A stretch of DNA of 64,000 nucleotides from Rhodocyclaceae bacterium (GCA_026646875.1 JAPKHL010000005.1:24912-88911), one strand, 5' to 3'; positions 6,001-44,052 are shown, numbered from the stretch's first letter. Made by a program: numbers and translations. Notes: a model not told the origin generated them from the letters alone.

Positions 6001-6078
<78 letters not shown>

Positions 6079-6476: not shown

Positions 6477-6762
6477 GATAGGACTGCTCCACCTCGGCCT
6501 TCAGCTTCTGGCTGGCATGGAAAGTGACGACACGCCGCGCGGTGATGGGGATTTCCTCGCCGGTCTTGGGATTGCGGCCAGGCCGCTGGGGTTTGTCGCG
6601 CAGCTGGAAATTGCCGAAACCGGAGAGCTTGACGCCGTCGCCCCGCTCCAGGGCATTGCGGATTTCCTCGAAGAACGCTTCGACCATATCCTTGGCCTCG
6701 CGCTTGTTGAGGCCGACCTTCTCGAACAACAGATCTGCGAGCTCAGCTTTGGTAAGCGTCAT
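6460..6762 (-). CDS. ihfA: integration host factor subunit alpha
   Basis: 100 aa. [28 protein letters not shown]...[12 protein letters not shown] is the IHF/HU fold. Confidence 0.95.
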
Positions 6763-6774
6763 TGTTCTTCCTTG

Positions 6775-9150
6775 TCAGACGCGAAGCTGCGCCGCGAATG
6801 CCTGCTGCAAGTAGGCAACCAGCTGCTGCATGGCGGCGTCGACTTCCGCATCTTGCAAAGTTCTTTGAGTATCTTGCATAACTATACGGAAAGCAAGACT
6901 TTTCTTCCCGGTCCCGACGCCTTTGCCGGTATAAAGATCGAACAGGCGGATGTCCTGCACGAGGGCCGGGCGATTGGCGGTCATGCCGTCGATCAGTGCC
7001 TGCAGGGAGGTTTCGTGCGGGACGACGATGGCCAGATCGCGGATCGCCGGCGGCTGCCGGGAGACCTCGGCGTACTGCGGCAAGCGGGCGCGCGTGAGCG
7101 GATCGAGTTCGAGCTCGAAGAGTACCGGCGCCAGCGGCAGGTCGTATTTCTGGACCCATTGCGGGTGCAGCTCGCCGAGGAATCCCGCCGGGGCGCCGTC
7201 GATCAGCACGCGGGCGCTGCGTCCGGGGTGCAGCGCCGGGTGGGTGGCCGGCTCGAAACGCAGCTCGGCGGGTGCGAGCAGGGCCTCGAGGTCGCCCTTG
7301 ACGTCGAAGAAGTCGACGTTGCGCGCCGGAGCCCCCCATTGTTCGGGCAGAGCGCTGCCGTAGGCGAGCGCGGCGAGCATCCAGGGCTGCCGGAAGCCAG
7401 CCACCGGGCCGCTCGCGGCGGCACGGGTGAAGCAGCGGCCGGTTTCGAAGACGCGCACGCGGTTCTGGCGGCGCTTGAGATTGGTGGCCACGTTGGCGAC
7501 CAGGCCGCCGATCAGCGTCGAGCGCATGACCGCCAGCTGGCTGGCGATCGGGTTGGCCAGACGGATCGGCGCGGCATTGCCGCCAAAATCGGTTTCCCAG
7601 GCTTCCTCGACGAAGGCGAAGTTGACCACTTCCTGATAGCCGCGCCCGGCGACGATCCGCCGGATGCGCGCCAGCGGCCGCGCATCCTCGGTCTGCGGCA
7701 GCATCGACAGGGCGCCCTGCGGCGCCGGGGCGGGGATGTTGTCGTAGCCGTGCAGGCGGGCGATTTCCTCGATCAGGTCTTCCTCGATTTCAATATCGAA
7801 ACGGTAGCTCGGCGGCGTGACGACGAAATCCTCGCCCTCGCGGACGAAGGTCAGGCCCAGGCGGGTAAATAGCTCTGCGATGCGCGCGCTGTCGAAGGCG
7901 AGACCGAGCACCCTGGCGACGCGCGACGGACGCAGGCGGACGGGAGTGCGCTCGGGCAGGGCGGCCTGCGCCTCGCTGACCGGGCCGGCCTGGCCGCCGC
8001 AGATCTCGAGAACAAGCCGGGTGGCGCGCTCAAGTGCGCGGCGGGTGCCGCCGAAATCGACGCCGCGCTCGAAGCGGTGCGAAGCATCGGAGACAAAGCC
8101 GTAGCGGCGGGCCCGGCCGGCGATCGCGCCGGGGGCGAAAAAGGCGGCTTCAAGAAAGAGCTCGCGGGTTTCGAGGGTGATGCCGCTCTCCTCGCCGCCC
8201 ATGATGCCGCCCATCGCCACCGGGCGCCGGTCGTCGGCGATCAGCAGCACGTCGTCCTCGAGCGTCAGGGTCTGCTCGTTGAGCAGCAGGATCTGCTCGC
8301 CGGCGCGGGCCATGCGCGGCACGATGGCGCCTTCGAGCCGGGCGTTGTCGAAGGCGTGCAGGGGCTGGCCGAGCTCGAGCATTACATAGTTGGTGATGTC
8401 GACCAGCGCGGAAATCGGGCGGATGCCGGAACGCTCGAGCCGGCGCTGCATCCAGAGCGGGGTCGGAGCCCTTGCATCGACCCCGGCGATGACGCGTCCG
8501 CAGTAGCGCGGGCAGGCGTGCGGGGCCTCGAGGCGGATGTCGCGGCGCGTTTCGATGGTTACCGGGGCTTCACCGACTTCGGGATAGCGCGCCGGGGCGC
8601 CGGTCAGTGCCGCCACTTCGCGGGCAATCCCGGTGAGCGACAGGCAGTCGGCACGGTTCGGAGTGAGCTTCAGGGTCAGCAGGCGGTCATCGAGATCGAG
8701 ATACTCGCGAATGCCCTGCCCGACCGGAGCGTCGGCCGGCAGCACGAGCAGGCCGGAGGCATCCTCGGCGATGCCGAGTTCCTTGGCCGAGCAGAGCATG
8801 CCCGAGGATTCGACACCGCGCACCTTGGCCACCTTGATGGTGAAATCGCCGGGCAGCTTCGCGCCGGGCAGCGCGCAGGGCACCTTGAGGCCGGCAGCGA
8901 CGTTCGGCGCACCGCAGACGATCTGCTGCGGGGCGGCGGCGCCGATATCGACCTTGCAGACGTTGAGGCGGTCGGCATCGGGATGCTTCACGACCTCGAG
9001 CACCTGCGCGACGATCACGTCGTTGAACGGCGGGGCAACGGTGTCTTCCTCCTCGACCTCCAGGCCGGCCATGGTCAGGAGATGCGAGAATTCCGCGCCC
9101 GAAAGTTTCGGGTCGACGAAGGTGCGGAGCCAGGATTCCGAGAATTTCAT
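6775..9150 (-). CDS. pheT: phenylalanine--tRNA ligase beta subunit
   Basis: 791 aa. MKFSESWLR... is the canonical PheT N-terminus, and the gene is adjacent to pheS. Confidence 0.95.
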   Translation of the reverse strand: MKFSESWLRTFVDPKLSGAEFSHLLTMAGLEVEEEDTVAPPFNDVIVAQVLEVVKHPDADRLNVCKVDIGAAAPQQIVCGAPNVAAGLKVPCALPGAKLPGDFTIKVAKVRGVESSGMLCSAKELGIAEDASGLLVLPADAPVGQGIREYLDLDDRLLTLKLTPNRADCLSLTGIAREVAALTGAPARYPEVGEAPVTIETRRDIRLEAPHACPRYCGRVIAGVDARAPTPLWMQRRLERSGIRPISALVDITNYVMLELGQPLHAFDNARLEGAIVPRMARAGEQILLLNEQTLTLEDDVLLIADDRRPVAMGGIMGGEESGITLETRELFLEAAFFAPGAIAGRARRYGFVSDASHRFERGVDFGGTRRALERATRLVLEICGGQAGPVSEAQAALPERTPVRLRPSRVARVLGLAFDSARIAELFTRLGLTFVREGEDFVVTPPSYRFDIEIEEDLIEEIARLHGYDNIPAPAPQGALSMLPQTEDARPLARIRRIVAGRGYQEVVNFAFVEEAWETDFGGNAAPIRLANPIASQLAVMRSTLIGGLVANVATNLKRRQNRVRVFETGRCFTRAAASGPVAGFRQPWMLAALAYGSALPEQWGAPARNVDFFDVKGDLEALLAPAELRFEPATHPALHPGRSARVLIDGAPAGFLGELHPQWVQKYDLPLAPVLFELELDPLTRARLPQYAEVSRQPPAIRDLAIVVPHETSLQALIDGMTANRPALVQDIRLFDLYTGKGVGTGKKSLAFRIVMQDTQRTLQDAEVDAAMQQLVAYLQQAFAAQLRV

Positions 9151-13567: not shown

Positions 13568-13644
13568 TGGTAGGCGCGATTGGATTCGAACCAACGACCC
13601 CCACCATGTCAAGGTGGTGCTCTAACCAACTGAGCTACGCGCCT
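13568..13644 (-). tRNA. tRNA-Val (anticodon GAC)
   Basis: The reverse complement is AGGCGCGTAGCTCAGTTGGTTAGAGCACCACCTTGACATGGTGG...TTCGAATCC...CGCGCCTACCA. Confidence 0.9.
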
Positions 13645-35937: not shown

Positions 35938-36302
35938 GGGGGCGACCTGGCTTCGACGTGGGTTGCAAAGCAGCGCAGGGCATACCGAGGACCAGTGACC
36001 TCGTAAATCCATCTGGAAATCAATAAACGCCAACGACGAGCGTTTCGCTCTCGCCGCCTAAAGCGGCGTGACCGCTGCACTGACTGGTCCCTGGGTCAGG
36101 TGGGGCAACCCACGGCAGCGTCATTTACAGGGACTCGCCCTTGCCAGGGTCACTTTGGCCGGGGCTAAATCCAAGGTGACTCGCCAGAAGCAAGCCTGTT
36201 CGGCCGGCGTGCCAAGGTTAAAACCCAATTGACCGGACTAAGTATGTAGAACTGCCTGTAGAGGACTTGCGGACGGGGGTTCGATCCCCCCCGCCTCCAC
36301 CA
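35938..36302 (+). ncRNA. ssrA: tmRNA (SsrA)
   Basis: GGGGGCGACCTGGCTTCGACG 5' end and a tRNA-like 3' end GGACGGGGGTTCGATCCCCCCCGCCTCCACCA. The tag reading frame at 36029-36061 encodes ANDERFALAA*. Confidence 0.95.
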
Positions 36303-37084: not shown

Positions 37085-37452
37085 GCGTCCTCCTCAAAGC
37101 GCTTCACGATCTGGCGTTGCGCCTCCCAATCCACCGGCAGCGGGTTGCGCTGGAACCAGATCAGGTTCATCCGGCGCGGCTGCCGCCCGGCCATCAGCAG
37201 TTCGAGGATGTCAGGCGCGAGCAGGGTCAGGCGCATCAGCTCGTTGGGCACCGAGGGGTGCAGTCCTTCGGTCCGGGCAATGTCTGACCCACTCTTCATC
37301 ACACCGGTGTCCACGAGGTGCTGCCAGTAGAAACCGCGTGCCACCCCCTCCAGCAGCGTCACATCGTGGACGTGACGGTCGTCGGCGGCCACGCGCCGCG
37401 CGCCCCGGCGACGAAATGTCAGGGGCACAAAGGTTTCCAGTGTGTCGTCCAT
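37081..37452 (-). CDS. small recombinase-associated protein, paralog 1 (RLTLLAP motif, putative HTH)
   Basis: The ATG at 37452 overlaps the recombinase stop (ATGA). 123 aa, MDDTLETFVPLTFRRRG... Confidence 0.7.
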   Translation of the reverse strand: MDDTLETFVPLTFRRRGARRVAADDRHVHDVTLLEGVARGFYWQHLVDTGVMKSGSDIARTEGLHPSVPNELMRLTLLAPDILELLMAGRQPRRMNLIWFQRNPLPVDWEAQRQIVKRFEEDA

Positions 37453-38831
37453 CAGGCTTCGACCTCCACCAGTTCCGCGCCGATGCCCCTCGGGGCGAAC
37501 TCGCCGATTAGGGCGTCCCAGCCCAGTTCCCGCCACTTCACCTTGATGCCCTGCACCTCGCCGACGTGGACGAGGTCGATGCGCTCGATCATCAGGTTGG
37601 CGATGCGGTGACGCTCGACCGGGAACAACTGATCCCACACGTCGTTGAGCCGTCCCATCGCCATCACCGTGGTGGCCTCGTCGATCTGGGCCCCATTGCG
37701 CTGGATGTGGCGCACCACCGATGCGATGGATTCCGGGCTGGTCAGCACCGTGCGGATCTGGGCCACCACCGCCGCCTCGATCTCAGGTGCAGGCAGGCGT
37801 TCGTAGCTCTTGCCCGGTGCTCCGAACCGGCTTTCCGACTTGGACACGTAGTAGTGGTACTTGCGCCCGTTCTTGCGCGAGTAGGTCGGGTACATCCGTT
37901 CGCCCGAGGGGGCGTACAGCAGGCCGCGCAGCAAGGCGTCGGTGCGCGACCGGATCTTGGTCTCCACCGACCGGGCGTGCCCATCCCTGGCCAGCACCGT
38001 GTGGACCTTGTCCCAAAGCTCCTGGTCGATGATCGGCGGGTGAGCGCCGGGGTACCAGTTCCCCTTGTGCGATAGCTCCCCCAGGTAGATGCGGTTGCGC
38101 AGCAGCTTGTGCAGGTACTTCTTGTCGATGCGTGTGCCGCTGCGGGTCTGGCCCTCCTGCGTCGTCCAGGCCTTGGTCGTGATGCCGTCGGCAGTGAGGC
38201 TGACGGCGATCTGGGTCGGCGAGCCGATGGTCAGCATCTCCTCGAAGATGCGACGCACCACCGCCGCCTCGGCCTCGTTGATGACCAACAGGCGGTTGTC
38301 GACGTCGTAACCCAGGGGCGGGACGCCGCCCATCCACATCCCCTTGCGCTTGGCGGCGGCAATCTTGTCGCGGATGCGCTCGCCGGTGACCTCGCGCTCA
38401 AACTGGGCGAAGGACAGCAGGACGTTGAGCATCAGCCGACCCATCGAGGTGGTGGTGTTGAACTGCTGGGTGACCGACACAAAGGACACCCCGTGGCGTT
38501 CGAACACTTCAACCATCTTGGAGAAGTCGGCCAAGCTGCGCGTCAGGCGGTCGATCTTGTAGACCACCACGATGTCGATCTGGCCGCGCTCGATGTCCGC
38601 CATCAGGCGTTTCAGCCCCGGCCGATCCGTGTTGCCGCCAGAGAAGCCGGGGTCGTCGTAGTCGTCGGCCACCGGAATCCAGCCCTCGGATCGCTGACTG
38701 GCGACGTAGGCGTGGCCCGCCTCCTTCTGCGCGTCGATGGAGTTGAACTCCTGGTCAAGCCGTTCATCCGAGGACACCCGGCAGTAGACGGCGCAGCGCT
38801 TGCGGGCCTTGGTGCTGGCAATCTCGCTCAT
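37452..38831 (-). CDS. large serine recombinase (resolvase/invertase N-domain + recombinase domain)
   Basis: 459 aa. CAVYCRVSSDE is the catalytic Ser region. VVYKIDRLTRS and a recombinase domain follow. Confidence 0.9.
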   Translation of the reverse strand: MSEIASTKARKRCAVYCRVSSDERLDQEFNSIDAQKEAGHAYVASQRSEGWIPVADDYDDPGFSGGNTDRPGLKRLMADIERGQIDIVVVYKIDRLTRSLADFSKMVEVFERHGVSFVSVTQQFNTTTSMGRLMLNVLLSFAQFEREVTGERIRDKIAAAKRKGMWMGGVPPLGYDVDNRLLVINEAEAAVVRRIFEEMLTIGSPTQIAVSLTADGITTKAWTTQEGQTRSGTRIDKKYLHKLLRNRIYLGELSHKGNWYPGAHPPIIDQELWDKVHTVLARDGHARSVETKIRSRTDALLRGLLYAPSGERMYPTYSRKNGRKYHYYVSKSESRFGAPGKSYERLPAPEIEAAVVAQIRTVLTSPESIASVVRHIQRNGAQIDEATTVMAMGRLNDVWDQLFPVERHRIANLMIERIDLVHVGEVQGIKVKWRELGWDALIGEFAPRGIGAELVEVEA

Positions 38832-39280
38832 CGCGCACCTCCCTTGCTCAGGCCAAAGAACAGCGGCCCCGACCAGTGCGCGCCCGTGATGTGGCGGGCC
38901 ACCGCCGTCAGGCTCTTGAAGTTGCGCCCCTGGTACTCAAACAGCCCCTCGGCGGTGACTGTCACCCGATGTTCGCGCTCGCCCCATTCGCGCAGCAGGA
39001 TCGTGCCCGGCGCGAAATCGAACTCGCGCGGCTTGGCCCGCAGCTTGATCTTGGAGTGTTTTGCGCCGATGGCTTCCAGGCGCTGCTTGGTCTCGGGCGC
39101 AAGGCCACCGAAGGCTTCCTCCTGCAGCTTGTAGGCGAGACGGGACTCGACGTGCGTGCGGTTGGGGTAGTCCGGGCGACGCGGGAAATACCGATCCCAC
39201 ACCGTCCAGAGCTCGGACATCGGCAGGCAGGCCAGCTCCGCAATCCGCGCGGCGACGGATGCTTGTTTCTCGTTCATCAC
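38828..39280 (-). CDS. DUF2924-like protein
   Basis: 150 aa whose stop overlaps the recombinase start. The ...FKSLTAVARHITGAHWSGPLFFGL tail is typical of the family found upstream of serine recombinases. Confidence 0.75.
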   Translation of the reverse strand: MMNEKQASVAARIAELACLPMSELWTVWDRYFPRRPDYPNRTHVESRLAYKLQEEAFGGLAPETKQRLEAIGAKHSKIKLRAKPREFDFAPGTILLREWGEREHRVTVTAEGLFEYQGRNFKSLTAVARHITGAHWSGPLFFGLSKGGAR

Positions 39281-39305
39281 AACTTCTCCTCTTGATAGGG
39301 GGTTG

Positions 39306-39337
39306 TATGAACGCGCTGGTCGGGCAGGAAGCCAAGG
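39306..39337 (-). promoter_or_regulatory. copy D of the 32-nt conserved motif (AACGCGCTG-N9-GAAGCCAAG on the plus strand)
   Basis: Lies 25 nt upstream of the DUF2924 start. Aligns without gaps to the copies at 54762, 55422 and 55723. Confidence 0.7.
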
Positions 39338-39584
39338 CCAACTTCTCTCTGTTTTGGTTCATCCGCAGCAAGGGTGCGGACGATGGCAGCCGCAAGGATG
39401 GCGGCGATTTCGCCAGCACGGGCGCTGGCGCTCATCTCCGTGGGAGATGCGAGTTCGAGGTTCTTCATGACGGCTCCGAGGAATTGCAACCGTCAGGGAT
39501 AGTGAGCCTGATCTTCCGAAGCGGATGGCAACGCAGGGTAATCGTGACCGCCAGTCATGAATCCATTGCGCGTTAACGAAACAG

Positions 39585-39613
39585 TTGACAGAGTGCCTCT
39601 TGGCCTCTACCAT
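39585..39613 (+). promoter_or_regulatory. sigma70-like promoter of the XRE/ImmA operon
   Basis: TTGACA-17 nt-TACCAT, 35 nt upstream of the ATG at 39649. It is bracketed by the inverted GTTAACGA(A)ACAG repeats at 39572-39584 and 39614-39624. Confidence 0.6.
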
Positions 39614-39619
39614 CTGTCG

Positions 39620-39637
39620 TTAACTAATCACGCAATC
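39620..39637 (+). promoter_or_regulatory. operator-like box 1 (TTAACTAATCACGCAATC)
   Basis: 15/18 identical to the box at 40797-40814. Lies between the -10 element and the XRE start codon. Confidence 0.6.
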
Positions 39638-39648
39638 AGGTCACAACC

Positions 39649-39927
39649 ATGCCCTTTGGAGCATTCATCCGCAAGAAGCGCGAAGAGAAAGGCATTCAGA
39701 TGAATGACTTTGCGCGCCAGCTGGAGATATCACCCGCCTACTGGTCGCGCATCGAGCGCGACATGGAAAAACCGCCCAAGGACGAGCTGATCCGTAAGGC
39801 GGCCGAGATCCTTGGAATCAGCGCCGACGACGCTTTCGTCGAGGCCAGTCGCCTGCCTCCCGACATCCGCGATGATGTTGGCAACCTGGTTCGGATGTAC
39901 CGCCGGAACGTGACGGAGAAGAAGTGA
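39649..39927 (+). CDS. XRE-family helix-turn-helix regulator
   Basis: 92 aa. IRKKREEKGIQMNDFARQLEISPAYWSRIERD is an HTH_3-type motif. Confidence 0.88.
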   Translation: MPFGAFIRKKREEKGIQMNDFARQLEISPAYWSRIERDMEKPPKDELIRKAAEILGISADDAFVEASRLPPDIRDDVGNLVRMYRRNVTEKK

Positions 39928-40740
39928 ATGGCGGTACTGACTCTCGACTACCGGTGCTGCGACCGGAAGCGCCCGCTGTACATCAAGCACATTGAGGTCG
40001 AACGCATCGCCGCGACCGCGCGCCAGCAACTGGTCGCGGACAGCATCGATGCCGTTTCTTTCGACGCGCTGCGGCAGATCTCCGGCCTGAAGATCAACGG
40101 CATCGACTTCGCGCTGGAGGTCAGCACCGACTACTCCGTGCATGACGAGCAAGGCAACCACGTCTTCGGCGTCTGTGAATTCGACCCCGCTATGCCCGAC
40201 GCCGCGATGGTGTCCATCTCGCCCGTGGGTGAGAGTCTCAGCGAACTGCTGGCCCTCAGCACCTTGGCCCACGAGCTGGGCCACGCCGTGTTCGACGCCC
40301 CCGGCTGGGTTGTTCAGGGCAGCAAGGGTCCCGGGTTGTTCGATGACATCGAACCGACGATGCAACGCGCCTACCGCACCACGACGCCGGACAGCGACCA
40401 CTTGTCCAAGTCACTATCTGCGAAGCCAACGACGGAAGAACACTTCGCCGAGCTGCGCGCCAACGAGTTCATGGGCTCCTTGCTGGTGCCTCGCCAACGC
40501 ATCATCGCCGCCGTCGAAGAGCTTGCGCCCCAGCACGACATCACCATCCATCGCCATCCTTCAACCGATCCCGACCACCCCGGCACGGCCCTGCGCATCA
40601 AGGCGAACGGCGACCTGGGAGTCTTGGAGATGGATCGCTTCGAGAAAGCCTTGGCGACGCGCTTCGGTGTCAATCCACGGTTCATCCAAGTACGTCTGAA
40701 CCGTTATGGCCTGACCACTCAGGAGGCCACGATGCGCTGA
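39928..40740 (+). CDS. ImmA/IrrE-family zinc metallopeptidase
   Basis: 270 aa starting directly after the XRE stop, with HELGH and a downstream EFMGSLLVP motif. Confidence 0.8.
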   Translation: MAVLTLDYRCCDRKRPLYIKHIEVERIAATARQQLVADSIDAVSFDALRQISGLKINGIDFALEVSTDYSVHDEQGNHVFGVCEFDPAMPDAAMVSISPVGESLSELLALSTLAHELGHAVFDAPGWVVQGSKGPGLFDDIEPTMQRAYRTTTPDSDHLSKSLSAKPTTEEHFAELRANEFMGSLLVPRQRIIAAVEELAPQHDITIHRHPSTDPDHPGTALRIKANGDLGVLEMDRFEKALATRFGVNPRFIQVRLNRYGLTTQEATMR

Positions 40741-40761
40741 CCAGGATCTACCGCCTGTGGA

Positions 40762-40785
40762 GCCGACCTCGCGTCGGCGTTTTTT
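40762..40785 (+). terminator. rho-independent terminator after the ImmA-like gene
   Basis: GCCGAC-ctcgc-GTCGGC followed by GTTTTTT. Confidence 0.7.
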
Positions 40786-40796
40786 GAATCATTCGA

Positions 40797-40814
40797 TTAA
40801 CTGTTCGCGCAATC
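40797..40814 (+). promoter_or_regulatory. operator-like box 2 (TTAACTGTTCGCGCAATC)
   Basis: 15/18 identical to box 1. Lies 27 nt upstream of the ATG at 40841. Confidence 0.6.
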
Positions 40815-40840
40815 GCGCACTTTGTCAAAGGAACTTGCCT

Positions 40841-42265
40841 ATGCCAGCTGACCAAGCCTCAACAACAAAGAAAAGCACCAAGTTGGCGACGAGCCAGCCT
40901 GCAGCAAAACGTGCGCGTGAGCATCGATCCGATGAGGGCGCAAACATCCTGCCGAACGCAGAGAACTTCGTCAGCCTCGTGCGCAAGGTCGCGCGCCCCG
41001 GGCTGCTGGTGGATCTGCTCGAACGCGCCAGCGCGACGGCACTGCCGGAGTTGAAGGCATTGGCAGAAGCGGCCAAGGGCAAGTTGCCAGTCGAGTCGCG
41101 TCAGGCACTCTTTCATGCTGTCGGCAAATTGCCGGTGGCCGCCCAGTACAGCATCGAGTGTGCCGCCGAGCGAGTGATGCTCCTTGACGATGACTACGGG
41201 GCACAGGCCGTCTTGTCCCTGCTCAACGAAGAGCGTGCCGACGATGCCGCCATGCTGGCTGCGCCCAGCGACCGCTACAGCCGCGCCCTGTATCTGCACC
41301 TCTTGCAGGACTTTCCAGCGCAAGGCGCCCGCCGCGACGAACGCTTCGATCAGGCTGAGCATCTGCAAGTGATGCATCGTCAGTGGAAAAGCGACCACTA
41401 CTCCAGCCACTACCTGGGCCCCAAGGGCGTCGTGCCGAAGAGTGGGATCGACGTTCAAGAGGTGTTGCGCACACGCATTGCCGAACTGTTCCCGAAGGTG
41501 CCGAAGGATCAAATCCTGATCGAGCAATTCACGCGCCGAGATCTGTCATGCGAACAGGGTGATGACGATGATTGCGAAGCCGGTCAGTCGGCGCTGTTGC
41601 ACACGCTGACGGCGACCTTCAATGGCAAGACGGCCACGTTCCAGCAAGTGGCGAACGGGCATGTCGTCGACCACGAGGAACCCGCTGCGATGTCGGCCCG
41701 CTTCTCGTGGGAGCCGGATACTGGCTCACTCAGCGTGTTCTGCGAAGAACGGGAGGCGCGCCGCGAGCTGGCCACCGTCTTCCGTGATGTCGCGTTGGCG
41801 CACGAAGGCCAGATCGAGGACATGCCCATGCGGCAGTTCGACCTGCTCGGCTTTGCGACCTCCAAGATGCTGGACCGCCTCAAACGTGACCGGGTCGCAG
41901 GCATCGACGATATCTCGATCCTGCAGATCACGGTGGCCAAGCCGTTCGAGCAGACCTCAGAGTACGGCGGACGTGATGTGGTGCGGCAACTCTCCAGCAA
42001 GATGCAAATCACCCGCGACCGGCGCGACGGCCGCAACATCTATCAGGTTGCTTATGAGGACTATTGCGCCGAAGACCTGAGTCAGTACGCGCTTGTGCAG
42101 GTGAAGTTGGTCATGAGGATGTCCAAGACGCCACACCGCAAGGCGCACAACGTCGCTGTCCAGATCACCGCGCCGAACGGGCTGAACGACAAGAGCAGGA
42201 CCGACGACGACCGCAAGCGCGTGCAGGAACAGCTCATCAAGATCGGCGTGCTGAGCCAGTTCTGA
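40841..42265 (+). CDS. hypothetical protein (474 aa), no recognisable family
   Basis: ATG with an AAGGA RBS. The long ORF has normal, non-shadow composition. The N-terminus is K/A/S-rich and an acidic patch CEQGDDDDCEAG is present. Confidence 0.75.
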   Translation: MPADQASTTKKSTKLATSQPAAKRAREHRSDEGANILPNAENFVSLVRKVARPGLLVDLLERASATALPELKALAEAAKGKLPVESRQALFHAVGKLPVAAQYSIECAAERVMLLDDDYGAQAVLSLLNEERADDAAMLAAPSDRYSRALYLHLLQDFPAQGARRDERFDQAEHLQVMHRQWKSDHYSSHYLGPKGVVPKSGIDVQEVLRTRIAELFPKVPKDQILIEQFTRRDLSCEQGDDDDCEAGQSALLHTLTATFNGKTATFQQVANGHVVDHEEPAAMSARFSWEPDTGSLSVFCEEREARRELATVFRDVALAHEGQIEDMPMRQFDLLGFATSKMLDRLKRDRVAGIDDISILQITVAKPFEQTSEYGGRDVVRQLSSKMQITRDRRDGRNIYQVAYEDYCAEDLSQYALVQVKLVMRMSKTPHRKAHNVAVQITAPNGLNDKSRTDDDRKRVQEQLIKIGVLSQF

Positions 42266-42276
42266 GGAGGACGCCG

Positions 42277-43215
42277 ATGACGTCGCCGCATTTGAGCTTT
42301 TTCCTCGCGCTGGACAACCTCCCACGACTCGACGAATCAGTGCTGGCCGACAGGCTCGGGCGCGACCACCAGCAGTTTCTTCAGCGGCGCTGGATCGTGC
42401 CCGCAGGCCATCTCACCCATGTGATGGTGCCGTTTCTCGATTCCGAACAGGAAGTCGAAATCGATGTCGATGAGGACGCCGGTCGCTACAGCTACTGCAG
42501 TCCGCTGAACGGCAGAACCATCGTCCAACCGCTGGCGGGGATTGCCCTCTATTCCATCCAGATGGATTCCTGGCTCGCAGATCTGGCGGCGCTGATCGGC
42601 ATTGAGGAGCGGCGACGCTCGAGCCAGATCTGCCGGACACCGAATCACCTGTGGCACCTCGGTGAGCAGCGAATCGCTGGCACGCACGATTTCGCACCGG
42701 TGTTCGTTGGCCGAGCATGGTCACGCGCACCGCAGGACAAGATCACCGCAGTCCTTGCCGACACCGTGTGGCCGCGTGGTGGCGTTGTTCTGTGCCCAAG
42801 GCGAACCAATGCTTCGCTGCCACGTGACCACACGCTGCGCGGCTTCGATGAGTTCGTCCGCGTGACCGATGGCGCAGATGCGTTCGACACCGATGCCTTT
42901 GATCGTGTCCTGCGCGGCTACGCAACCAACGTGGGTGAGCCGGAACCGGTGCAGTTCTTCAATGGCAAGCGGCTCAAGCTCCCGCACATGGCGTCGTCCA
43001 TCGAACTCACCGAAGCGCGCGCCAAGATCATCAAGCTGATGTGGGGGACCGAAGGAAGTGCCCCGCCCGTGATGTCGTGGAAAGAGGTGAATGGTTCCGT
43101 CACCGTCAACACCGGCTTCCAATCCTTCGACGATGCCTTCGGCGACAAAGTAGCGCGTGAGGAGGTGATCGAGTGGGTTTCGCACGGTAAATACCGGGTT
43201 AGGCGCAACACATAA
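42277..43215 (+). CDS. hypothetical protein (312 aa), no recognisable family
   Basis: ATG 11 nt after the upstream stop, preceded by GAGGAGG. Confidence 0.75.
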   Translation: MTSPHLSFFLALDNLPRLDESVLADRLGRDHQQFLQRRWIVPAGHLTHVMVPFLDSEQEVEIDVDEDAGRYSYCSPLNGRTIVQPLAGIALYSIQMDSWLADLAALIGIEERRRSSQICRTPNHLWHLGEQRIAGTHDFAPVFVGRAWSRAPQDKITAVLADTVWPRGGVVLCPRRTNASLPRDHTLRGFDEFVRVTDGADAFDTDAFDRVLRGYATNVGEPEPVQFFNGKRLKLPHMASSIELTEARAKIIKLMWGTEGSAPPVMSWKEVNGSVTVNTGFQSFDDAFGDKVAREEVIEWVSHGKYRVRRNT

Positions 43216-43300
43216 ACGCCCCCATAAATCGAGCCAGACACGGCCCATAAACCCGTGCGGAGACTGCGATGTGCCCATTTCATACAGGAGGCACATCGAA

Positions 43301-43558
43301 ATGCAAACCTACTTCACCAACGCAACATCTGGCCAGACTCCGGCCAAACCCGGTGCGCCACAGCGCATCGCCCTTGACGAAAACGAGCTGGCCATCCGCT
43401 GGGGGCTTTCCGTCAAGACCCTGCGCCGCTGGCGGCAGGAACAACTCGGCCCGGTCTTCTGCAAGCTCGGTGCCCGCGTCACCTACCTGATCTCCGAGGT
43501 CGAAGCCTTCGAGCGTCGCGTTTCGCGGCACTCGACCTTCACTCGTGCATACCAGTGA
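43301..43558 (+). CDS. small HTH DNA-binding protein (AlpA/excisionase-like)
   Basis: LAIRWGLSVKTLRRWRQEQLGPVFCKLGARVTY is an HTH_17-type motif. AGGAGG RBS. Confidence 0.7.
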   Translation: MQTYFTNATSGQTPAKPGAPQRIALDENELAIRWGLSVKTLRRWRQEQLGPVFCKLGARVTYLISEVEAFERRVSRHSTFTRAYQ

Positions 43559-43569
43559 GGAGAGCGGCC

Positions 43570-44052
43570 ATGAGCGATCTGACCATCTTTCCCGCCGACC
43601 TCGCTGCCATGAGCACCGCCCAGTTGGTGGCGCTGCCGATCACCGATTTCGTCGCTGCCGAGCGCAATGTCGACGAGGCCACTGCTTACCTCAAGCAGCT
43701 GCGTGCCAAGCTGGATGCCGCCAAGCTCCAGCGCTACGGCGAGCAGGCCCGTAGCGCGCTGCGGGATTCCGGCCGCGACTTCGGAACCGCCCACGTCAGC
43801 GACGGTGCGCTGCACGTGAAGTACGAGCTCCCCAAAAAGGTGACCTGGAGCCAGACCATCCTCAAGGAGATGGCCGAGCGTATTGCCGCCTCAGGCGACA
43901 AGGTCGAGGACTACATCGACATCAAGTTGTCGGTGTCCGAGTCCCGCTACACCAACTGGCCCACGGCGCTGCAGGAGCAATTTGCGGCTGCGCGCACGGT
44001 CGAGGAAGGCAAGCCGAGCATCACCCTGACGCTCGATGGGGGTGCCGCATGA
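43570..44052 (+). CDS. hypothetical phage protein
   Basis: 160 aa. Its stop overlaps the next gene's start. Confidence 0.65.
   Translation: MSDLTIFPADLAAMSTAQLVALPITDFVAAERNVDEATAYLKQLRAKLDAAKLQRYGEQARSALRDSGRDFGTAHVSDGALHVKYELPKKVTWSQTILKEMAERIAASGDKVEDYIDIKLSVSESRYTNWPTALQEQFAAARTVEEGKPSITLTLDGGAA

Follow-up and report, generated by a model that had tools for sequence, protein, structure and literature searches.

Class II activators, such as PhoB and OmpR at pho boxes or CII of phage lambda, bind phased direct repeats that replace the −35 element, the T4 MotA/AsiA pair is a two-protein switch from early to middle transcription, and RdgC is a non-enzymatic, recombination- and nucleoid-associated DNA-binding ring dimer. 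Lambda RexA, encoded next to cI, has the RdgC fold, which is also that of Iml3/Chl4, binds DNA without sequence specificity and shifts the switch in favour of lysis (PMC11077077), and some lambdoid phages carry RdgC homologues beside cI (PMC12315714). The CapH/CapP, CapW and CapK/CapS cassettes are small, DNA-damage-responsive units located directly 5′ of immune operons including Bub, often just 3′ of a restriction-modification (R-M) system (PMC13373217; bioRxiv 10.1101/2024.11.21.623953). Here we describe two adjacent genes, A and B, of a prophage within a 64,000-nucleotide (nt) stretch of DNA from a Rhodocyclaceae bacterium (GCA_026646875.1, JAPKHL010000005.1:24912-88911), which was analysed at its full length and is called the window below. 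B is followed by a phased repeat array whose sequence covaries with the C-terminal domain of B. In the reading that we prefer, with a probability of about 0.45, A and B constitute a self-contained two-protein module for transcription control, itself under the repressor, in which B, together with A, switches on the adjacent operon.

A first-pass annotation of the window had marked two open reading frames (ORFs) of 474 and 312 amino acids (aa) at 40841–43215, with good ribosome-binding sites, close spacing and coding-like composition, and each of these points held, the positions and lengths being exact. AAGGAA, 8 nt upstream of the A start, is the Shine-Dalgarno sequence of A, GAGGAGG is that of B (42277–43215, ATG start), and the two ORFs are separated by 11 nt. 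GC content at the first, second and third codon positions was 0.67/0.41/0.78 in A and 0.65/0.45/0.73 in B, high at the third position relative to the second, and searches at an expectation value (E) of ≤1e-3 returned 193 homologue clusters for A and 192 for B. These homologues came from Betaproteobacteria, Pseudomonas aeruginosa and Xanthomonas, all were labelled "hypothetical" and none carried a Pfam domain; the mean column identity of the alignments was 74% for A and 69% for B. The longer starts GTG (40757) for A and TTG (42064) for B were rejected because the N-termini of homologues begin at the ATGs and, for A, also because the preceding 100 nt consist of a conserved non-coding terminator and motif. 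A and B are genuine adjacent genes, probably co-translated. Homology between the two proteins was rejected as well (hhalign probability 0.2%), their joint BLAST cluster being a single-linkage artefact. As the annotation had stated, neither gene corresponds in sequence to cI, cro, cII or N or to a recognisable exclusion protein, and B has no hydrophobic helices. No curated family of known function took in either protein: neither matched Pfam, NCBIfam or PADLOC, nor any PHROG of known function. The maximal Kyte-Doolittle 19-residue mean was 0.93 for A and 1.24 for B, with no transmembrane-like segment in either, and the median of this maximum over 74 B homologues was 1.27.

Profile search extended the A superfamily to 146 representatives at the 50% level, including ~390-aa proteins lacking the N-terminal tail. 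The distant relatives were studied at 80 genome loci (numbered with the prefix L, as are those of the close relatives) from Alpha- and Gammaproteobacteria, Magnetococcales and others. These distant A proteins had no match in Pfam or PADLOC, and all 38 that were tested matched phrog_37634 (PHROGs v4, unknown function), with E values as low as 2.7e-92; the A of the window did not reach this family at E ≤ 0.1, and 43 B homologues matched no PHROG. The wider A family has thus, by its phrog_37634 matches, already been seen in (pro)phage genomes. A B homologue directly followed A in 73 of 87 loci overall, the distant B proteins being ~314 aa long, with starts that mostly overlapped the stop of A by 4–8 nt.

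The B gene runs into an array of four direct repeats, termed B-boxes (Table 1), with an 11–12-nt spacing and with box 1 overlapping the B stop codon. The array is unique within the window (0.00 expected by chance). Phased arrays with the same 11–12-nt spacing were found 3′ of B in other clades, whether the next gene was that of an HTH_17 protein, as in the window, or belonged to a Bub-type operon (see below), and the boxes of those clades were TCACCCC, TTCACAC, TCCTACC, AACTACC, CCTAACC, TTCTCYC, TCCGGA and CCGTAG. A −10-like hexamer (TAATAC, TATACT, CATACT or CATCCT) followed 8–13 nt past box 4, and no −35-like hexamer was found upstream of it in any clade inspected. Among 18 loci checked, most had all or nearly all copies of the box motif within the array, where they lie on the + strand, and a few showed stray copies elsewhere or on the other strand; TCCGGA is palindromic. 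A strict exact-match test detected arrays in 20 of 65 distant loci compared to 7 of 325 control segments, and terminator-like hairpins directly after the B stop were present in 21 of the 65 loci compared to 2 of the 325 controls. The inverted repeat that lies between the −10-like hexamer and the HTH_17 gene folds as RNA with −15.2 kcal/mol (z = −2.96), and its counterpart in another clade, CAGTGC...GCACTG, represents a compensatory change; either a hairpin acting on translation or a palindromic operator is conceivable.

In these comparisons, the box sequence follows the C-terminal ~78 residues of B; it follows neither A, the remainder of B nor the gene downstream. Among 65 distinct B proteins of the close group, clusters of the C-terminal domain were pure for box type, and loci with different boxes never exceeded 59% identity in this domain, with up to 96% identity in the N-terminal part. 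Between L104 and L115 the boxes are switched, with A 88%, HTH_17 91% and B residues 1–230 76–100% identical and the C-terminal domains 28–57% identical; L104 and L001 share the same boxes, with 40–66% identity between the N-terminal parts and 79–96% between the C-terminal domains. The IMG/VR contig L098 carries an A 95% identical to that of the window, a breakpoint within B at about residue 60–70, past which its B is 16–44% identical to the window B, and different boxes. This breakpoint shows natural domain shuffling inside the B gene. The same relation was observed over larger distances: L019, a prophage, and L035, a Bub-type locus, share TTCACAC boxes, with C-terminal domains 66% and N-terminal parts 32% identical, and L014 and L038 have different boxes, with N-terminal parts 48% and C-terminal domains 31% identical. 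Covariation of this kind is characteristic of a domain that binds DNA sequence-specifically and of its target. Two other candidates for the array-binding protein were rejected: A, which remained 88–95% identical across box switches, and HTH_17, which remained 91–95% identical across differing boxes and is dispensable for the persistence of the arrays, as these are also found without it.

B is predicted to be a soluble alpha/beta protein, the last ~70 residues of which form three helices and a hairpin. The C-terminal domain follows the pattern of a strand, three helices and a hairpin, with an OmpR-like "LTxKQ...L" helix and a "GxYxL" wing, and the sub-threshold similarities obtained for it were to a MarR-family regulator and to winged helices of the OmpR/PhoB type, in alignments spanning the strand and the "LTxKQ..L" helix. 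Foldseek found no PDB match for whole B (best E 0.17, SH3/Tudor-like fragments only), a sequence-profile search of PDB gave nothing significant, 25 isolated C-terminal domains had no match in Pfam, and no conserved catalytic-type residues or toxin-like domain were found.

The AlphaFold model of A, built on a 62-sequence alignment, was of high confidence (predicted local distance difference test (pLDDT) 90.5, predicted template modelling (TM) score 0.83) and consists of a helical domain at residues ~33–181 followed by alpha/beta domains. Its best Foldseek matches in PDB were RdgC (2owy/2owl, E 1.4–1.9e-3, probability 0.96–0.99), along with CENP-N/Chl4, and its best viral matches in BFVD included phage proteins annotated as RdgC (E 1.1e-4 to 2.8e-3, probability 0.99–1.0). 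On this model A belongs to the RdgC fold class, and the RdgC/RexA fold is linked in the literature to the very genomic position of A, beside a phage repressor (PMC11077077; PMC12315714). No Pfam match was obtained at E ≤ 0.1, and thus none to the RexA-family (RexA or DUF4747-type) or RdgC-family (PF04381) profiles; a sequence-profile search of PDB gave nothing significant, and no catalytic-type residues were conserved. A may act as a sequence-independent, presumably dimeric DNA clamp or horseshoe, and may contact B.

The position of A and B ties them to an immunity region. They are preceded by the genes of an XRE-family helix-turn-helix (HTH) protein and of an ImmA/IrrE-type M78 metallopeptidase, which have the adjacent layout of a CapH/CapP-type (ImmR/ImmA-type) pair and gave weak PADLOC matches to capH (1.3e-5) and capP (4.6e-4), respectively. 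ImmA is syntenic with A in all close relatives, in which the identity of A to the window copy correlated with that of ImmA (r 0.94), B (0.89) and HTH (0.87) and more weakly with that of HTH_17 (0.67), Sak4 (0.61) and the recombinase Int (0.47). Since the divergence of A tracks that of ImmA, B and HTH over that of HTH_17, Sak4 and Int, HTH-ImmA-A-B is exchanged as one immunity-type module. A role of A-B as excision factor of the serine recombinase is unlikely, as the correlation with Int was the lowest and A-B is also found without the recombinase. Of the 72 distant loci with sufficiently long sequence upstream, 57 have a repressor of the damage-responsive type directly before A: HTH and ImmA genes divergent in 39 and co-directional in 14, and a LexA/CI-like S24 repressor in 4.

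Conservation over the 100 nt that separate ImmA from A exceeds that of the coding DNA on either side. Both the terminator stem with its T-run and the block (A/G)TTAAC-N4-TCGCGCAATCGCGCACTT at 40797–40822 are invariant or nearly so across relatives with only 43–98% identity in A. The window contains exactly three instances of the pattern TTAAC-N(0-10)-CGCAAT (39565, 39620 and 40797) compared to 0.07 expected, and two of these operator-like sites, ATTGCGCGTTAAC and TTAAC-N6-CGCAAT, flank the HTH promoter. We infer from this distribution a single regulator, in the simplest case the XRE repressor, that acts on its own promoter as well as on the A-B unit, and the latter would be insulated from the repressor transcript. 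At L048, the only locus of the divergent type that was scanned, a candidate near-consensus promoter TTGACA-18-TATCTT points toward A from ~310 nt upstream. No motif shared by the regions upstream of A in the distant loci emerged from a k-mer search, the operators being clade-specific, and an Rfam search of 39200–43700 gave no match.

The remaining statements of the first-pass annotation can be set against these results. Its disordered N-terminus of A is real as a low-confidence tail, though shorter than the ~45 aa given (~30 residues; pLDDT 41/52/74 over residues 1–30), and the C-terminal third of A is basic as described, if only mildly so (isoelectric point (pI) 8.6, net charge +2). The "Cys-flanked acidic patch" of A turned out to be a variable low-confidence loop (residues ~236–250) with non-conserved cysteines, whereas the acidic stretch of B, SEQEVE(V/I)(E/D), is conserved among homologues and predicted to be a beta-strand. 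The pair had been said to have no motif that could be placed; A can now be given an RdgC/RexA/CENP-N fold and B a C-terminal domain that covaries with the neighbouring array, and the pair has its place in an immunity module, right after the XRE repressor and ImmA protease that the annotation did not mention. Expression of the pair in the lysogen, raised there as a possibility, is not favoured by the conserved terminator and operator-like site between the repressor transcript and A.

These elements would fit together as follows. In the lysogen, the XRE repressor would sit on O1 and O2 at its own promoter and on O3 before A, and the repressor transcript would end at the terminator at 40762–40787. 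Inactivation of the repressor by the ImmA protease would lead to A and B being made together. The winged-helix-like C-terminal domain of B would then bind the four repeats (43209–43251), and, because these occupy the place of the missing −35 element, we propose that B bound to the array activates the promoter of the operon that follows (HTH_17, Sak4, helicase, primase). A, as a clamp of the RdgC/RexA fold, may work with the N-terminal part of B as a co-factor or as a sensor of DNA state. In defence islands, the same module would control a Bub-type operon instead.

Such loci were found in the distant set. At five of them (L010, L015, L029, L035 and L036) A-B precedes genes for Multi_ubiq(x3)/E2-like, JAB-like and ThiF E1 proteins, the JAB-like protein being assigned from its motif, without a Pfam match; such an operon is of the ubiquitin-like Bub type, here in defence surroundings (bioRxiv 10.1101/2024.11.21.623953; PMC1779556). 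At L010, L015 and L029 the unit of A-B and ubiquitin-like operon adjoins type I and type II R-M genes, and L035 and L036 lie in an integrative and conjugative element (ICE), where a gene fusing HTH and M78 and a DUF2188 gene lie upstream. The usual downstream genes of the distant loci encode HTH_17, phrog_2480, Sak4, DUF669-like, DEAD helicase, PD-(D/E)XK nuclease and primase proteins. At five further loci (L016, L021, L028, L032 and L058), genes for an AbiEii-like nucleotidyltransferase and an AbiEi-like antitoxin, so labelled from reading the sequences, without a family search, lie on the opposite strand right after B. The junction of B and the early operon is an apparent hotspot for accessory defence genes.

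Several observations weigh against activation of the adjacent operon by B with the help of an RdgC-like A. The similarity of A to RdgC is one of domains, as the TM-scores are low (0.21–0.37), RexA was not among the 50 best PDB matches, and hhalign gave A a probability of 0.24% with lambda RexA and 0.12% with E. coli RdgC. The B model is of moderate quality (pLDDT 81, four other models 49–72), and the DNA-binding assignment of its C-terminal domain stayed below threshold throughout: Pfam gave nothing significant on 43 homologues (Trans_reg_C, PF00486, at E 0.023 in one of the 43), profile search of PDB reached winged-helix proteins only at E 0.16–1.7 (response-regulator DNA-binding domains 0.21–1.7), and hhalign against PhoB residues 125–229 gave 0.5%. 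Both whole proteins are slightly acidic (pI 6.1–6.2). At the DNA level, GAGACT is weak as a −10 element in this clade, and no convincing σ70 promoter was found in it between O3 and A. L012, a Magnetococcales locus (6516–6912), carries AACTACC in four phased arrays within 400 nt after B, which look iteron-like or like several B-dependent promoters. Finally, the sequence would be compatible with either sign of the regulation, and the opposite one, in which B represses the adjacent promoter from the box array and A acts as a sensor or anti-repressor releasing B on a DNA signal (single-stranded DNA, ends or foreign DNA), must be considered, although we think it unlikely. In that case, A-B would join CapH/CapP, CapW and CapK/CapS as a new "controller of adjacent pathways". 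Repression would agree with the location of A-B directly 5′ of the Multi_ubiq/E2-like-JAB-ThiF operon at the five loci with R-M or ICE surroundings, a position that CapK/CapS and CapH/CapP hold by Bub operons, which they repress (PMC13373217; bioRxiv 10.1101/2024.11.21.623953), and with the overlap of box 4 with the −35 and spacer region of the promoter, where RNA polymerase could be occluded; the covariation supports binding and says nothing on sign. The layout of the box promoters speaks for activation, however: none has a −35-like hexamer in the clades inspected and several have good −10 elements (TATACT, TAATAC), and a good −10 without a −35 is the signature of activator-dependent promoters. 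Moreover, A-B is apparently itself repressor-controlled in prophages, and it would be strange for a further repressor to be produced only once induction has taken place.

Two further explanations take the fold of A as their starting point. A Rex-like superinfection-exclusion or abortive-infection pair, made from the prophage to protect the lysogen, with A sensing DNA and B as the effector, would account for the modelled RdgC/RexA fold, for a two-gene unit beside the immunity repressor, like cI-rexA-rexB and the RdgC homologues by cI in lambdoid phages (PMC11077077, PMC12315714), for the presence of A-B in defence islands and for the AbiEii/AbiEi genes, recognised by sequence reading, inserted right after B in several loci. 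It sits poorly with a B that has no transmembrane segment, conserved catalytic-type residues or toxin-like domain and whose C-terminal domain covaries with a DNA array, as that of a transcription factor does. The conserved terminator and operator-like site part A-B from the repressor transcript, the position of the pair is fixed across very distant prophages, unlike that of typical accessory defence genes, and PADLOC matched neither A, B nor the distant A relatives; we hold such a pair to be quite improbable. The iteron-like look of the phased repeats, with the four arrays of L012, the resemblance of A to RdgC and RdgC-annotated phage proteins, and the location of the pair just 5′ of a Sak4/SSB-like/helicase/primase module would all suit a role in recombination or replication, with A as a phage RdgC analogue restraining RecA or protecting DNA, B as an origin or iteron binder and the array as part of the phage origin. 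This role is very unlikely in our estimate: the same arrays follow B at Bub-type loci without replication genes, the divergence of A-B follows that of the repressor and ImmA genes and not that of Sak4, and the arrays always lie a fixed short distance 5′ of a −10-like hexamer and the next gene start. Returning to the activator module, its furthest extension would be a previously unrecognised two-protein controller of adjacent operons, in which A, as an RdgC/RexA-fold DNA clamp, reads the state of DNA (ends, single-stranded DNA, replication or repair intermediates) and licenses B, a modular winged-helix activator whose exchangeable C-terminal domain recognises a cognate four-box array, so as to time delayed-early genes in a very large family of temperate phages of Proteobacteria and to switch on Bub-type operons in defence islands; in this full form the proposal is doubtful.

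Table 1. Features of the A-B region, with positions counted from the first nucleotide of the window.
Feature	Position	Strand	Remarks
O1 operator-like site (ATTGCGCGTTAAC)	39565–39577		abuts the −35 of the repressor promoter; conserved across relatives
σ70-type promoter TTGACA-17-TACCAT of the HTH-ImmA operon	39585–39613	+	from promoter scan; hexamers kept as TTGACA / TAYGAT in relatives
O2 operator-like site (TTAACTAATCACGCAAT)	39620–39636	+	just 3′ of the −10
XRE-family HTH protein, 92 aa, presumed prophage repressor	39649–39927	+	Pfam HTH_3, E 8.8e-11; PHROG transcriptional-repressor families
ImmA/IrrE-type M78 metallopeptidase, 270 aa	39928–40740	+	HELGH motif; Pfam Peptidase_M78, E 1.1e-5, above curated cut-off
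Intrinsic terminator (GCCGACCTCGCGTCGGC then T-run; GCCGAC...GTCGGC)	40762–40787	+	predicted end of the HTH-ImmA transcript
O3 TTAACTGTTCGCGCAAT and invariant block CGCGCAATCGCGCACTT	40797–40822	+	in front of A; TTAAC-N6-CGCAAT layout as in O2
ORF A, 474 aa	40841–42265	+	ATG start; basic disordered N-tail, helical domain, RdgC/RexA/CENP-N-like alpha/beta domains
ORF B, N-terminal and middle part (residues 1–234)	42277–42978	+	co-inherited with A
ORF B, C-terminal ~78-residue domain	42979–43215	+	helix-helix-helix-hairpin prediction (winged-helix-like); candidate specificity determinant for the repeat array
B-box array, four direct repeats CACATAAA, CCCATAAA, GCCAGACA, CCCATAAA	43209–43251	+	starts 43209, 43221, 43233, 43244
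−10-like hexamer GAGACT, conserved	43260–43265	+	8 nt after box 4, without −35; candidate promoter of the downstream operon
Inverted repeat GATGTGCC-N14-GGCACATC	43268–43297	+	spans the Shine-Dalgarno sequence of the HTH_17 gene
HTH_17 (excisionase/AlpA-like) gene	43301–43558	+	opens the downstream early/replication operon

The prophage carrying A-B is ~45 kb long and lies beside the tmRNA gene (35938–36302). This gene, with the tag ANDERFALAA, lies immediately left of the recombinase end (37452–38831), so that the element appears to be integrated beside ssrA; in the related locus L002 the same element directly follows smpB. Leftward genes encode the large serine recombinase and a DUF2924 protein, and the rightward ones, in order, the XRE HTH protein, the ImmA/IrrE M78 peptidase, A, B, HTH_17, phrog_2480, a Sak4-like AAA_24 ATPase and further replication proteins. 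The order serine recombinase-DUF2924 / HTH-ImmA-A-B-HTH_17-replication genes is also that of Burkholderia, P. aeruginosa and GCA_000963005.1, where the insertion sites in the chromosome differ and the element continues to D5-type primase, ParB-methylase and terminase genes, and the late region is similar to predicted Ralstonia prophages and Acidithiobacillus caldus phage records. IMG/VR holds 107 contigs carrying A, typically of 42–49 kb, with A ~4.3 kb from one end. A and two of its distant relatives, compared by tblastn with 50,697 phage genome records, gave no match, nor did A with PLSDB plasmids, and a literature search on DUF2924/serine-recombinase prophages found nothing on A or B.

Some further observations concern the prophage and the window. 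A decaying copy of the module with an intact A is present in L006 (9494–12377, GCA_000963005.1) and L007 (1281–4164, a metagenome contig), in which the ImmA gene is deleted (a 40-aa remnant persists in L007) and B is broken up into two ORFs of 59 and 227 aa. A small ORF on the minus strand (39277–39468; 63 aa from MKNLEL..., cluster c22), directed leftward between DUF2924 and the HTH promoter, is conserved and present in all close relatives. The A protein P0074, labelled "Burkholderia cepacia complex" (L004 versus L005), also occurs on a contig with the flanks of a P. aeruginosa locus (Lactamase_B, AraC, TetR and others), which suggests a prophage family crossing genera or a mixed sample. The first 4000 nt of the window are unusually GC-rich (0.70–0.76 versus ~0.64 elsewhere), and tRNA-Pro(GGG) and tRNA-Val(GAC) genes are located at 6001–6077 and 13568–13644, respectively.

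We found no description of the A-B pair as a unit, of the RdgC/RexA-fold assignment, of the box arrays or of their covariation with B; what is already known is that the wider A family has been binned as a PHROG of unassigned function, phrog_37634, the pairing being undescribed. If the activator reading is right, an early regulator would have been identified for a widespread, never-isolated family of ~45-kb temperate phages with hosts among Burkholderia, P. aeruginosa, Ralstonia, Xanthomonas and many Alpha- and Gammaproteobacteria. An RdgC/RexA-fold protein beside a phage repressor would acquire a testable function bearing on a RexA-like role at the lysis-lysogeny switch, and, on the furthest extension of this reading, the poorly understood "switch-biasing" activity of lambda RexA would gain a concrete mechanistic relative. 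A candidate positive regulator would also join the cassettes that control immune operons such as Bub, and the pairs of B C-terminal domains and boxes would represent a natural orthogonal set of transcription factors and promoters.

Among known systems, lambda RexA/RexB and the Rex-like pairs of actinophages CarolAnn, Sbash and Toast resemble A-B in being two genes by the immunity repressor, the first of which encodes a protein with an RdgC-type fold, one that for A is predicted at the level of domains. A differs from lambda RexA (279 aa) in the absence of sequence similarity (no Pfam match, hhalign 0.24%) and in its 474-aa length, which includes an additional helical domain at the N-terminus. 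RexB is a polytopic inner-membrane protein, and B, with its winged-helix-like domain and no hydrophobic segment, is predicted to be soluble; the terminator and operator-like site would also insulate A-B from the repressor transcript, in contrast to lambda rex. E. coli RdgC and phage RdgC homologues are the best structural matches to A in both libraries (PDB and BFVD); A shows neither a Pfam RdgC match nor an hhalign signal, has a different domain arrangement, as its TM-scores of 0.21–0.37 indicate, and is obligately paired with B. With the Cap controllers, A-B shares its position at L010, L015, L029, L035 and L036, and in prophages it travels with a CapH/CapP-like HTH and M78 pair, yet it contains no GHKL kinase, STAS, WYL or M78 domain, and its promoter layout suggests activation. 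Identity of A-B with CapK/CapS (an HTH-STAS-GHKL kinase and its STAS-wHTH substrate; PMC13373217) was rejected, as there was no STAS or GHKL Pfam match and the folds differ. The likeness to PhoB/OmpR and CII is one of architecture and not of membership, with B-box 7–8-mers every 11–12 bp ending 5′ of a −10 without a −35 and, as against PhoB/OmpR, a B devoid of a receiver domain and of a significant Trans_reg_C or PhoB match. The arrays, along with their covariation, would suit a domain that recognises tandem direct repeats spaced by about one helical turn near the −35, as domains of the OmpR/PhoB type do. As in the case of MotA/AsiA, A and B would be two early-made proteins that turn on the next temporal class of genes.

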